From positions 1-42,109 of the forward strand of contig JBAXOY010000010.1 in assembly GCA_037133055.1 (NCBI GenBank): DNA of 42,109 nucleotides, read 5' to 3'. The translations under genes and the position numbers were made by a program. This stretch comes from Chlamydiota bacterium (GTDB taxonomy: Bacteria; Auribacterota; Tritonobacteria; UBA1439). The first letter of the stretch is position 1. The number at the start of each line of letters is the position of its first letter. Below are positions 14,650 through 42,109 of this stretch, piece by piece. The notes beneath the pieces were generated by a model that was given only the letters and a program-made list of their open reading frames with translations, did not search any database and had not been told where the DNA came from.

Positions 14650-15765
14650 CTACCGCGTCAGGAACGACTGGGCGTGATAGCGCCTCCCCTTCCAGAGCAC
14701 GCCCCGCCCGCTCACCTTCTTCCAGAACGCCCCCATGAGAATCCCGATGGCCACGGCGCAGCCGAGCGGGTGCGCGAAGATATAGCGCCGGTCCGCCCCG
14801 ATGAAGGCGTACCCGCGCTCGGCGGCGAGATGCATGAGGATGAGCTGGGCGAGCGCGAGCCGCGGCCACCACGGCGCCGCGAGATAGGGGAGGAGGTCGA
14901 ACACGGCCACGCACGCGGCGACGAGCGGGAGCGCCCAGATGAAGTCGCTGAAGACGAGAAAGAATATCCGCTCCCACCCCGTGATGAGCTTCCGCAGCGA
15001 GGTGTACATCCTGCACTCGAACATCTCGCGCCCGCAGAGGAGCCGGAAGCGTATCCCCGCGCGCTTCGCGTTCTGCGCCATGGCGATGTCCTCGAGGGGG
15101 AACGACTGCACGGCCTCGTGCCCGCCGATGCGCGCGTACGCGTCCCGCCTGATGAGTAGATACTGCCCGTTGGCGAACGCCGTCCGTGACCGGTCCCGGT
15201 TGACCCGCGGGAGCGGAAAGAGCATGAACAGCATGATGCCGACGATCGGCTGGACGGTCTTCTCCCAGAACCCCTCGCAGGCCGGACGCGGGAGCAGGGA
15301 GAGGGCCCCGACGCCGTTCCTGAGCGCCCAGGCGAGCGGGACCTGGATCGAGAGGGGCGAGTGCACGGTGTCGGCGTCGGTGAAGAGGAGCCAGTCGCCG
15401 CGGGCCTCCCGCGCGGCCACGGCGAGGGCGTGGCTCTTTCCCGCGCACCCCTCGGGCAGGGAGGGGATCCTCACCGCCCGCACGGACGGGAACTGCTCCC
15501 GGAGTATCTCCGGTGTCGCGTCCTCGGAGCGGTCATCGGCGACGATGATCTCATAGCGGGGGTAGCGCTGGCCGAGGAGGGATCCGAGACAGCGCGCGAT
15601 GGCCCGTTCCTCGTTCCGCGCCGCGACGAGCACCGAGACAAGGGGGGCGTCGGAGAGCGGCTCCCGCAGGGAGGGGTCGGAGAGCCGGTTCATCCACGGC
15701 AGGGTGAGGGACACGAGGTACCGCTTCAGCCAGACCGCGAGGACGAAGAGCATCAAGAGGCGCAT
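14650..15765 (-). CDS. Glycosyltransferase family 2 (HpnB/CrtQ-like)
   Basis: VSVLVAARNEE, DDRSEDAT, GKSHA, FTDADT (DxD), ANGQY, EDIAMA, C-terminal TMs and WKGR. Confidence 0.88.
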   Translation of the reverse strand: MRLLMLFVLAVWLKRYLVSLTLPWMNRLSDPSLREPLSDAPLVSVLVAARNEERAIARCLGSLLGQRYPRYEIIVADDRSEDATPEILREQFPSVRAVRIPSLPEGCAGKSHALAVAAREARGDWLLFTDADTVHSPLSIQVPLAWALRNGVGALSLLPRPACEGFWEKTVQPIVGIMLFMLFPLPRVNRDRSRTAFANGQYLLIRRDAYARIGGHEAVQSFPLEDIAMAQNAKRAGIRFRLLCGREMFECRMYTSLRKLITGWERIFFLVFSDFIWALPLVAACVAVFDLLPYLAAPWWPRLALAQLILMHLAAERGYAFIGADRRYIFAHPLGCAVAIGILMGAFWKKVSGRGVLWKGRRYHAQSFLTR

Positions 15766-15843: not shown

Positions 15844-16034
15844 TTCAACGTCGGGACGCAGATGAACGCAGATCGTCAGGATGAACGCAAATTGAGGGAT
15901 CAGTTTCTCGTTTCCGGTTAAAAGTGGAAAGGGAAGTTTCGTTGCAATCCGCGTGCATCCGCGTTCAGAAAAATATAGTTGTATCCCTGCCTATCCTGAC
16001 GATCTGCGTTCATCTGCGGGCCACGTTATCGCTG
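15844..16034. repeat. Dispersed GCAGAT/CAGGAT inverted-repeat element, copy 1 (reverse orientation relative to copy 2)
   Basis: 26-bp perfect IR cgcagatgaacgcagatcgtcaggat (15857-15882) / atcctgacgatctgcgttcatctgcg (15993-16018). Inner motif atccgcgtgcatccgcgttc at 15947-15966. Confidence 0.9.
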
Positions 16035-16129: not shown

Positions 16130-16393
16130 ATGGCGAAAAAGATCGCGGCGAGGAAAAAGACGGCGCGCGTGAAATCGGCGAAGCGCAAGGCCCCGGAAGC
16201 CACCGCGCGCGTGAAACCCGCGAAGCGGAAGGCGTCGAACGCGCCGGCCCGCCCGCGGCTCAGTCCGCGCGAGCTCGGCCTGCTGATTCAGAAGACGGCC
16301 TACGAGCTGTACGCGCGGCGCGGTTACATCCACGGGCGCGACTGGGCGGACTGGCTCGAGGCGGAGCGGATCGTCCTGGCGAAGAGGCGCTGA
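16130..16393 (+). CDS. DUF2934 domain protein with Lys/Ala/Arg-rich N-terminus
   Basis: AGGAGG RBS then ATG 16130. IQKTAYELYARRG..HGRDWADWLEAE signature. Confidence 0.85.
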   Translation: MAKKIAARKKTARVKSAKRKAPEATARVKPAKRKASNAPARPRLSPRELGLLIQKTAYELYARRGYIHGRDWADWLEAERIVLAKRR

Positions 16394-27642: not shown

Positions 27643-28413
27643 ATGTCCGCGGGAGCCATGAGAGAGACCGGCACGCAGTCCCTGTGCGTCGCGCTGTGGC
27701 GGGGAATCCTCGGCCTCGTCTTTCCGGCGCACTGCGCGCTCTGCGCCGTCCCGCTCGCCCCCGGCCGCCCGACCCCTCTCTGCGACCGCTGCTGGGACGC
27801 GCTCCCCTCGATACGGCAGCCCTACTGCCCCCGGTGCGGGAGGCAGATACGCGGCGCGACCCTGGTCCCGTTCGACACCCCCTGCGGCGAGTGCCGGATC
27901 GAGAAGCCGCGATTCGGGATCTGCCGGTCCGCGGGGCTGTACGAGGGATCGCTGCGTGAGTGCGTGCATCTCCTGAAATTCGGCGACCGGCGTGAGCTCG
28001 CCGCCGCGATGGGGCTCTTCATGGCGGAGTGCCTCGCGCGGGAGCTTCCCGGGGCAAAGTATGACGCGCTTGTTCCCGTCCCGATTTCGCGGGCGCGGCT
28101 CCGCGAGCGGGGCTTCAACCAGGCGCGCGACCTCGCCCGGGCGCTCGGGGCGCGGGCGGGGATGCCCGTGGAGGCGCGGGCGCTGACGCGCGGGGAAGGG
28201 CGACCGTCCCAGCGCACCTTTTCGAGGGCAGAACGCTGCAAGAACGTGTGCGGCGACTTCACCGTTTCGGACGCGGGCGCGGTCGAGGGACGGCGCCTCC
28301 TCCTGATCGATGATGTCTACACGACGGGCGCGACCGTGGACGAATGCGTCCGGGTCCTGCTTCGGGCCGGAGCGGAGGCGGTCGACGTGTTCACGCTCGC
28401 GCGGGGTGCCTGA
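27643..28413 (+). CDS. comF: ComF family (double zinc ribbon plus phosphoribosyltransferase)
   Basis: CALC, CDRC, CPRC, CGEC, RGFNQA, LLLIDDVYTTGAT. Confidence 0.9.
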   Translation: MSAGAMRETGTQSLCVALWRGILGLVFPAHCALCAVPLAPGRPTPLCDRCWDALPSIRQPYCPRCGRQIRGATLVPFDTPCGECRIEKPRFGICRSAGLYEGSLRECVHLLKFGDRRELAAAMGLFMAECLARELPGAKYDALVPVPISRARLRERGFNQARDLARALGARAGMPVEARALTRGEGRPSQRTFSRAERCKNVCGDFTVSDAGAVEGRRLLLIDDVYTTGATVDECVRVLLRAGAEAVDVFTLARGA

Positions 28414-28424
28414 CGCCGGGCGCG

Positions 28425-28635
28425 CAGCAATGACGTAGCCCGCAGATGAACGCAGATCGTCAGGATAGGCAGGATACGGAAGAGCAAAGAAAGAACCGCC
28501 CAAATGGGACGCAGATGAACGCGGATTCAAAACGTGTACCGAACCCTGAACTTTGAGTCAGAACCCCGAATGCTGAACCTTGGTTGTCTCTGCGTTTATC
28601 CTGACGATCTGCGTAATCTGCGTGCCGGCGTTGAA
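28425..28635. repeat. Dispersed GCAGAT/CAGGAT inverted-repeat element, copy 2
   Basis: Left arm cgcagatgaacgcagatcgtcaggataggcaggata (28441-28476), middle gggacgcagatgaacgcggat (28506-28526), right arm tatcctgacgatctgcgtaatctgcg (28597-28622). Confidence 0.9.
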
Positions 28636-28667
28636 GCATTGAAACGCTGCGGGAGACTTGAACACCC

Positions 28668-29348
28668 ATGACGCGCATCGCGATCCTCATCGCCGCGACG
28701 ATCCTCGCGGGCGCCGCCGGCCCGCGGCCCGCGGCAGAGCGGATCTGGGCTTTCGACTGGAGCCCGCGCGCCCGGGCGGAGGCCGCCCGCGAGACGGCCG
28801 GGTTCCGCATCGAGGCGGAGCCGGTCCCGGGGGCGCAGATCAGGAGACCCGAGGGGGAGTTTGGCTCGATCAGGCGCAACGGGATCAGCTATCACAAGGG
28901 GGTCGACTTCGTCGCCCCCCCGGGCACGCCGGTGCGGGCGGCGGCCGCGGGGTTCATCTGCTACAACGAGATGAACGGCGGCCCCGACTCGGGGTACGGC
29001 TACACCGTGCTGATCGATCACGCCGACAACTTCTACACGCTCTATGCGCACCTGAACGAGCCGTCGCCCCTCCCGAACGGCCGGTGGGTGGGGGCGGGGG
29101 AGCGGATCGCCAGGGTCGGGCGGAGCGGCAACGCGATGAAGGTGCCAAAGGAGTTTCAATACCAGCTCCATTTTGAGATACTACATGCGCCGTCCGGTCT
29201 TATGGATCTCGGGGGCCTCCGGGTTGTCGACCTTTTCAGCCCTCACGGCCTCACCACGCTCAGGCAGATCGGCGAGGCGGTCTACGGGATCTACCGGGGC
29301 GGAGTGCTGAACCCCGAGGATTTCGGGAGAGACCGATGCGTGCGTTGA
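28668..29348 (+). CDS. Secreted M23 (LytM) family protein
   Basis: Signal peptide, HKGVDF, GTPVRAAA.G, GYGYTVLIDH, YAHL, VGRSGN, QLHFEI. Confidence 0.88.
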   Translation: MTRIAILIAATILAGAAGPRPAAERIWAFDWSPRARAEAARETAGFRIEAEPVPGAQIRRPEGEFGSIRRNGISYHKGVDFVAPPGTPVRAAAAGFICYNEMNGGPDSGYGYTVLIDHADNFYTLYAHLNEPSPLPNGRWVGAGERIARVGRSGNAMKVPKEFQYQLHFEILHAPSGLMDLGGLRVVDLFSPHGLTTLRQIGEAVYGIYRGGVLNPEDFGRDRCVR

Positions 29349-41455: not shown

Positions 41456-41844
41456 AGACGCCTCCTTGAATGGTGCGGGGGATATGCGTCCCCCTCGGAT
41501 GTGAGATGACGGTGCGGGATGAGCGGCGGAACGGGCCGCGGGCTGGAGTGCGATCTGCGTGCGGGACGATTGCGGCGCGCCGGGCTGATCCCCGCCGGGC
41601 AGGGATTTCGCAAAAGCGGCGCTTGAAGCGGGGGGGACCCGCTTCCAGTTTCGGGCGAGGCTGACTGCGACAAACACGACGAAGATCAAGAAGGGGAAAA
41701 GGTTGCGCATGCCCGTGTCCCTCGCCGAATGATGACCGAGTATAAAACCATCCGCGCGGGAAAACAAGCGCAATAATGGGACAGGGCGGGAGGGTAGTGG
41801 GACAGTTTCGGGGGTACAACACCTATACTGATCCGGCTTTAACG

Positions 41845-42109
41845 GTAGCACGCAGATGACCGCAGATCGTCAGGATAGACAGGATATACAATACGACAAA
41901 ATTCTTTTGGACGCGGATCGCCGCGGATGGGACAACAGCTTAAAGTTTAAAGTTCAAAGTAACGAGGCATTCAGGGCGCAGATTTCGCAGATGAACGCAG
42001 ATAAAGAAACAGCACATGACTTTCAAGAATGAATGGGACGCAGAGCCTCCTTCACTTCCCGCTTATTCCCTTGAACTTTCAACCGTAGTTTTATCTGCGT
42101 ACTCTGCGT
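41845..42109. repeat. Dispersed GCAGAT/CAGGAT element, copy 3 (compound, truncated by window end)
   Basis: gtagcacgcagatgaccgcagatcgtcaggatagacaggata (41845-41886), ggacgcggatcgccgcggat, cgcagatttcgcagatgaacgcagataaa, and an inverted tttatctgcgtactctgcgt at the end. Confidence 0.88.

Follow-up and report, generated by a model that had tools for sequence, protein, structure and literature searches.

Gene-less inverted-arm elements in a Chlamydiota genome share their ends with the cassette of a predicted GxxExxY nuclease

The window studied here, a 42,109-nt stretch of a Chlamydiota genome, carries three copies of an element whose inverted arms are built of 9-10-nt units, and these copies belong to a large genome-wide family whose ends are shared with a GxxExxY gene cassette. 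On the best reading of the evidence, the elements are non-autonomous, REPIN-like shells of that cassette, the product of which is predicted to be a nuclease. We give a little better than even odds, about 55%, to a nuclease-driven process in which the copies are gene-less family members that GxxExxY cutting, followed by repair, would spread and reshuffle.

The first-pass annotation had described three copies of an element of about 200 nt, and all three are present where it placed them, copy 1 in reversed orientation (Table 1). The arms pair perfectly over 26 bp in copy 1 (15857-15882 with 15993-16018) and over 18 bp in copy 2 (28450-28467 with 28597-28614). The ends are defined, as had been proposed: the alignment of reversed copy 1 with copy 2 covers 54 columns at one end, 50 of them identical, and 46 at the other, 41 of them identical. 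The interiors are AT-rich, with 44-50% GC compared to 67% for the window, and folding gave z-scores of -7.0 for copy 1 (as RNA) and -4.6 for copy 2 (as DNA). The number and size did not stand, since the genome has 83 loci and the 25 complete ones range from 77 to 644 nt. Nor is copy 3 a free element of about 200 nt; from position 41794 on, it lies within a miniature transposon. Beside copy 1, a DUF2934 gene contains short Lys/Ala/Arg-rich coding repeats with a 42-nt period (16146-16243), which appear ordinary.

Table 1. Features of the three copies and their flanks in the 42,109-nt window
Feature	Coordinates	Strand	Remarks
Copy 1 flank, family 2 glycosyltransferase (PF00535)	14650..15765	-	
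Copy 1, B-type end linker	15844..15856	+	TTCAACG + 5 nt + GGA
Copy 1, left terminal cluster	15857..15892	+	9-10-nt units; 26-nt core common to both ends
Copy 1, central segment	15893..15946	.	without partner elsewhere in the genome (blastn)
Copy 1, inner cluster	15947..15963	-	two CGCGGAT units, reversed
Copy 1, side segment	15964..15992	-	includes a degenerate fourth unit; blastn partners on C166 and C56
Copy 1, right terminal cluster and A-type end linker	15993..16034	-	
Copy 2 flank, ComF-like gene (PF18912 and PF00156)	27643..28413	+	
Stretch missing or substituted in three related strains	28419..28650	.	joints 28418 to 28651, 28418 to 28666, 28423 to 28681
Copy 2, A-type end linker and left terminal cluster	28425..28475	+	
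Copy 2, side segment	28476..28509	+	purine-rich; no partner in blastn
Copy 2, inner cluster	28510..28526	+	
Copy 2, central segment	28527..28587	.	contains 7-nt-period words that belong to a different repeat family; has a partner in C28
Copy 2, right terminal cluster and end linker	28588..28635	-	linker B-like (hybrid)
Copy 2 flank, M23 peptidase gene (PF01551)	28668..29348	+	
Left end of the GTA...TAC miniature transposon carrying copy 3	41794..41836	+	IS66-type by ends and the family's 8-bp duplications
Copy 3, A-type linker and terminal cluster	41837..41885	+	
Copy 3, two side modules with inner clusters	41886..42002	+	segment classes S7 and S5
Copy 3, central segment and first reversed cluster	42003..42109	.	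segment class S6; ended by contig end

In the 2.99-Mb assembly (G000, 92% complete) the core motif occurs 184 times, versus none in either of two order-4 Markov simulations. Grouping of this motif by script gives 83 loci, which contain 247 clusters of CGC(A/G)GAT units. Each locus is a stack of such clusters pointing inward between two distinct ends, A and B. In the arms a non-palindromic unit is repeated directly in tandem, with spacings (n=370) of 10 nt in 274 cases, 9 nt in 56 and 19 nt in 36. Every forward cluster lies to the left of every reversed one in 62 of the 64 loci that have at least two clusters; the two exceptions, C111 and C166, consist of entire hairpin units arranged head to tail. 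The units of these runs (C111:1-300 and C166:2513-2860) are joined B end to A end, and the one in C111 lies directly upstream of a GxxExxY gene; they could be tandem insertions or the trace of a circular form. The 97 terminal clusters are divided evenly between the end types (46 A, 46 B, 5 unclassified). The 28 left-right end pairs, a number that includes three repeats of C111, comprise 23 A+B, one B+B, three unclassified and a single A+A, which is copy 2 with its hybrid right linker. One copy seemed to lie within a gene (C6:32918), but the ORF called there is an artefactual fusion. In 400 kb of a relative (G004, 2.7 Mb), 47 loci follow this grammar with a segment set of their own; 25 of 37 segments are shared, 16 of 17 alignments have one polarity, and 2 of 28 multi-cluster loci break the layout rule. 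The same-genus genome G001 (80% complete) has none of these elements.

The spacers had been taken for unique sequences and, in the same proposal, for exchangeable cargo. Among the inter-cluster segments of at least 15 nt (n=161), 146 have a partner, i.e., a blastn match in another locus, and these include 5 of the 7 segments of the window. Thus the spacers are not unique, and exchangeability stands in the form of a shared pool of recurring modules rather than unique cargo. All 825 side-segment alignments have one orientation with respect to the adjoining cluster, the strand so defined is purine-rich in 111 of 112 side segments, and the same segment classes recur in differing orders and on either side. 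Selection on the mRNA strand was considered as the source of this polarity and fits poorly with two-sided elements, whose orientation to transcription is 7:11. At three unrelated loci, C60, C71 and C73, the 290-nt interiors are near-identical and the likeness ends at the terminal clusters; relative to C71 and C73, the A and B linkers of C60 are exchanged, a reciprocal swap. A linker of one type is joined to a tail of the other at 21 of 87 classifiable ends. Finally, C103 and C8 have in common a derived miniature-transposon insertion at one site, yet are one module apart. G000 thus supplies marked recombinants, with swapped ends, a shared insertion marker and shared modules, that show how the family changes.

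The genome has two GxxExxY genes, on C111 and C122 (PF13366/TIGR04256), whose proteins score above the curated cut-offs of TIGR04256 and PF13366, at 133-139 bits. The first-pass annotation had asked whether some copies enclose an ORF, and inverted arms of the present family do flank both genes (2/2). In the C111 cassette the A end is on the upstream side and the B end on the downstream side, an arrangement like that of the gene-less copies. Upstream of the C122 gene are six forward clusters with 25-109-nt segments, and its likely start codon is within the innermost cluster, as is that of a GxxExxY gene in a Thermodesulfobacteriota record (L091; 1 of 15 loci had the gene). Under a strict test for inverted tandem arms, 19 of 31 GxxExxY genes passed, versus 1 of 300 control genes from this genome, the one being the C111 GxxExxY gene itself; the 31 are the 30 best-scoring loci plus C122 rather than a random sample, and 12 failed the test. 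Across 41 genomes, at least eight unit pairs were found in 13 of 25 with TIGR04256 and in 0 of 16 without it, these 16 having at most one unit pair each. The Fisher p of 3.7e-4 for this co-occurrence is overstated, as the genomes are kin and the cut-off of 8 was chosen after the counts. This arm word is lacking in 12 of the 25 TIGR04256-bearing genomes. The proposal of a non-autonomous element with a GxxExxY partner is therefore supported by gene-arm association, by co-occurrence across relatives and by the empty sites described below.

The tree of GxxExxY proteins divides 14 from 17 (support 99/95), and the script-picked arm words contain GAT in 14/14 of the first clade and 0/17 of the second, although 8 of the 31 labels are weak and at least two are spurious by eye. 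The arm word follows the main split of the protein tree; it is one split, which shows co-inheritance rather than recognition. A CACGGAG arm word is seen at clade II GxxExxY genes. A CACGGAG/CACGAAG repeat family in G000 matches these clade II arms, and the assembly has no clade II gene. The structural model of the protein (pLDDT 92.7) has Cas4 SSO0001 as its best match (E 1.8e-5), with an alkaline exonuclease and the Holliday junction resolvase Hjc further down; VIA-align likewise gave restriction-fold matches, with middling Z scores of at most 7.9. E29, D68, K80, Q92 and Y96 never vary in the GxxExxY alignment, E78 hardly ever does, and no cysteine is invariant. A PDB sequence search with this alignment gave nothing significant. 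With the fold and the D...ExK residues present, the protein is predicted to be a Cas4/Hjc-like PD-(D/E)XK nuclease; in the available text of PMC3424549, the function of the family is given as 'Unknown'. A close-relative search of viral contigs gave no relative of the C122 protein. The arm word of the present family was seen at gene junctions in six stretches on three viral contigs (L146-L151), with no GxxExxY gene within the 1.4 kb examined.

Empty sites at orthologous loci, which the mobile-element proposal called for, were found for copy 2 in three strains and six related genomes. In strains X7, X11 and X16, which are 93-96% identical to the window and are represented by contigs from three runs of three studies, the comF-like gene is joined to the M23 gene without copy 2. 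The gap holds other letters instead (77, 38 and 23 in X7, X11 and X16, respectively), and at 93-96% identity the boundaries of the empty site are not clean. Copy 2 is also missing in 6 of 6 related genomes in which the comF-like and M23 genes are adjacent; two of the six have short 7-nt-period relics in the gap. In G003 (L016:2455-2784) the gap is filled by a GIY-YIG gene (PF01541) in GTCAT-type hairpin arms, and such arms surround many CGCAGAT elements in G000. Among six metagenome loci for the M23 gene, five are without the copy 2 element; the closest (L075, 94%) ends 69 nt upstream, with different sequence there, and is otherwise uninformative. The simplest reading is that copy 2 is a recent gain. 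At copy 1, the element is missing from the gap in both same-genus genomes, and in the X7 strain the match continues as far as 15881, inside the left arm, beyond which the sequences differ. For a near-identical strain (X2-X4 contigs), no joint across copy 1 or 2 was seen among those listed, from contigs that drop rare variants. Two further candidates for empty sites, C76 and C67, were set aside, as deletions at short homologies fit as well.

For copy 3 there is in addition a conventional route of spread, which the first-pass annotation overlooked. From 41794, it is identical at 303/316 and 299/309 positions to the ends of contigs C36 and C1, and its outer shell has GTA...TAC ends, which we take to be of the IS66 type. 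For eight of 11 GTA-type left ends there is a right end with exactly the same 8-bp flank, seven of these pairs spanning contig breaks and one lying within C85; an 8-bp duplication is given for IS66 in the available text of PMC3281130. The right end of the transposon carrying copy 3 lies outside the window, and the window's own left end (41794) had no exact 8-bp partner among the right ends. By a loose pattern, 16 of the 83 loci adjoin miniature-transposon-like ends, so part of the spread needs no nuclease. Other repeat families are also present. Elements of about 100 nt with GTA...TAC ends have a CCCTC-type hairpin in place of the CGCAGAT element (C34:23812-23914, C3:32378-32480, C11:2484-2585). 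A second miniature transposon family, GTAAC...GTTAC, of about 185-200 nt, has 8-bp duplications and 7-nt-period arms; its sites include C22:27966-28162, C38:15361-15551, C44:19077-19260 and C135:447-890, and in C135 its ends enclose a four-helix-bundle (TIGR02436) gene. Further intergenic arm families nested with the CGCAGAT family are CACGGAG/CACGAAG, TTGAACCG and AAAGTT-type heptads.

A rival account is that the elements are passive relics of GxxExxY cassettes, spread by miniature transposons or tyrosine transposases and shuffled by host recombination, with the nuclease uninvolved. Copy 3 is indeed a passenger, the 8-bp flank pairs speak for spread by such transposons, several repeat families nest in each other, and the genome has eight Y1 tyrosine transposase genes (PF01797), which could act on the elements in trans. 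Against this, 67 of the 83 loci, copies 1 and 2 included, are without a transposon end nearby, and none of the eight Y1 genes has CGCAGAT-type arms within 1.2 kb. Several Y1 genes have their own inverted GGGGTC-type, TIRtron-like ends (C64, C17, C88, C4, C11). The genome was searched with the transposase and recombinase profiles PF01797, PF03050 and PF00589, and the IS66 transposase (PF03050) had no match in the 92% complete assembly. Around 34 complete elements target duplications are not in excess, the longest flanking direct repeats being as in shuffled pairs, in agreement with the earlier remark that no target-site duplication was seen. Together with the end of the C60/C71/C73 likeness at terminal clusters, these observations leave passive spread an unlikely account, and we continue to prefer the nuclease-driven one.

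Three other explanations make the elements regulatory sites, RNAs or guide arrays. That the paired arms are regulatory or nucleoid-binding sites (IHF/HU), held by selection and looping the intervening DNA, would suit their intergenic position, their 10-nt phasing and their conformity to one genome-wide consensus, and is the reading offered for class 2 sites of Geobacter in the available text of PMC2700814. It is improbable here, given that orthologous sites in close strains and relatives are empty or hold other repeat families or a GIY-YIG cassette instead, that G001 has no such elements, and that the arms enclose a nuclease gene; moreover, the gene contexts resemble background (32 co-directional, 10 divergent, 7 convergent; n=49, with a rough gene caller). 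A structured RNA family had been put forward in the first-pass annotation; such RNAs could be long hairpins processed like rRNA intervening sequences, or could serve as terminators or stabilisers. The hairpins are strong, many elements lie between co-directional genes, and an RNA-library contig spans the empty copy 2 gap, so that inserted copies may be transcribed. An RNA function is nevertheless more improbable still, and that part of the proposal is not supported: no Rfam match was found in the window, the main stem of copy 2 has no terminator-like site, orientation to transcription is unbiased (7:11, with the rough gene caller), and there is no arm-to-arm covariation, left and right arms sharing 2 variants versus 1.9 expected by shuffling (25 elements, few variants and low power). 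Least credible of all, and already largely refuted, is that the stacks function as arrays of the CRISPR kind, with spacers that guide, or were acquired by, the Cas4-like nuclease. The fold and the six spaced clusters before the C122 gene brought this to mind, but segments recur between loci instead of being unique, and all 105 matches listed outside the elements are to other repeat families, with no unique gene among them. By blastn, copy 1 had no match in 50,697 phage records, and copy 2 none in 72,556 plasmid records.

For the nuclease-driven process that we favour, we infer nuclease activity, sequence-specific binding, and repair by gene conversion or inter-cluster inversion. The predicted nuclease from the two intact GxxExxY genes would bind the 10-base-phased CGC(A/G)GAT units and cut at clusters. 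Interiors would then be copied and modules reshuffled, either through repair templated by a different copy or through inversion between clusters that face each other, and gene conversion or inversion between clusters would keep the polarity of modules and the single centre of symmetry. Stacks would be built by repeated insertion into existing loops, with later deletion. The entry of a bare element into a new site is the least supported step; a lone PD-(D/E)XK nuclease is not known to have strand-transfer chemistry, so cutting does not account for entry into a new site. A fuller version, tentative and in our estimate short of even odds, is that the family is transposase-free selfish DNA, in which a 130-residue Cas4/Hjc-like nuclease would recognise and cut helically phased clusters, move gene-less shells into further intergenic positions and drive combinatorial module exchange, each protein clade serving its own repeat word.

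The named comparison system is REPIN/RAYT (Bertels and Rainey 2011, PMC3116915). As far as the available text of that paper goes, both systems have many extragenic, gene-less, hairpin-forming inverted doublets in multiple copies, higher-order mosaic clusters, and a low-copy gene flanked by the same repeats; here no target duplication was seen. The partner here is a PD-(D/E)XK-fold protein, not a Y1 tyrosine transposase, the arm is made of tandem non-palindromic 9-10-nt units in place of REP's imperfect palindromic core, and the spacing is variable (77-644 nt) between two unlike ends. A matching architecture is that of the putative regulator binding sites of Geobacter metallireducens (PMC2700814, 2009), paired inverted three-unit sites at variable distance. 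In the available part of that report they resemble our elements in having opposite-strand pairs of three tandem repeats each, at variable distance, and in that different multicopy sequences occupy the same gap in sister species; their consensus, TCTCCGTS[Y], approximates the reverse complement of CACGGAG, the clade II arm word. The Geobacter word differs from ours, and the IHF/HU reading given there comes without a link to a nuclease, mobility or module shuffling. Non-random clustering of multicopy sequences is described in the available text of PMC2996986. The claim of an undescribed system thus does not fully stand for the architecture, since paired arms are in PMC2700814. The nuclease link is absent from the available part of that paper, and a literature search that was thin on subscription papers gave no report connecting such arms with GxxExxY. 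In TIRtrons (Di Nocera 2013, PMC3733652), as described in the available text, one small gene is likewise flanked by inverted repeats, which also occur as a dispersed family, but with a tyrosine transposase and GGGGWSAS ends; the Y1 genes of this genome fit TIRtrons and are without CGCAGAT arms. The likeness to IS66-type MITEs, by ends and by the family's 8-bp duplications, is confined to the outer shell of copy 3, whereas the CGCAGAT element is without duplication and mostly stands alone. A free-standing homing endonuclease gene is a small nuclease gene spread by breakage and template repair at one conserved homing site. The present family differs in its many dispersed gene-less copies, its repeat arms and its many unrelated sites.

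In sum, the family is real and is a variation on the theme of autonomous and non-autonomous repeats, in which the candidate enzyme is unusual. GxxExxY (PF13366) is widespread, and arms with two end types, together with a protein clade for each arm word, make its function testable. Should movement or reshuffling of the elements prove to be the work of the nuclease, the two would form a REPIN-like autonomous/non-autonomous pair founded on a restriction-fold nuclease, not a transposase, and, if so, the paired 'regulator sites' of Geobacter would be re-explained.
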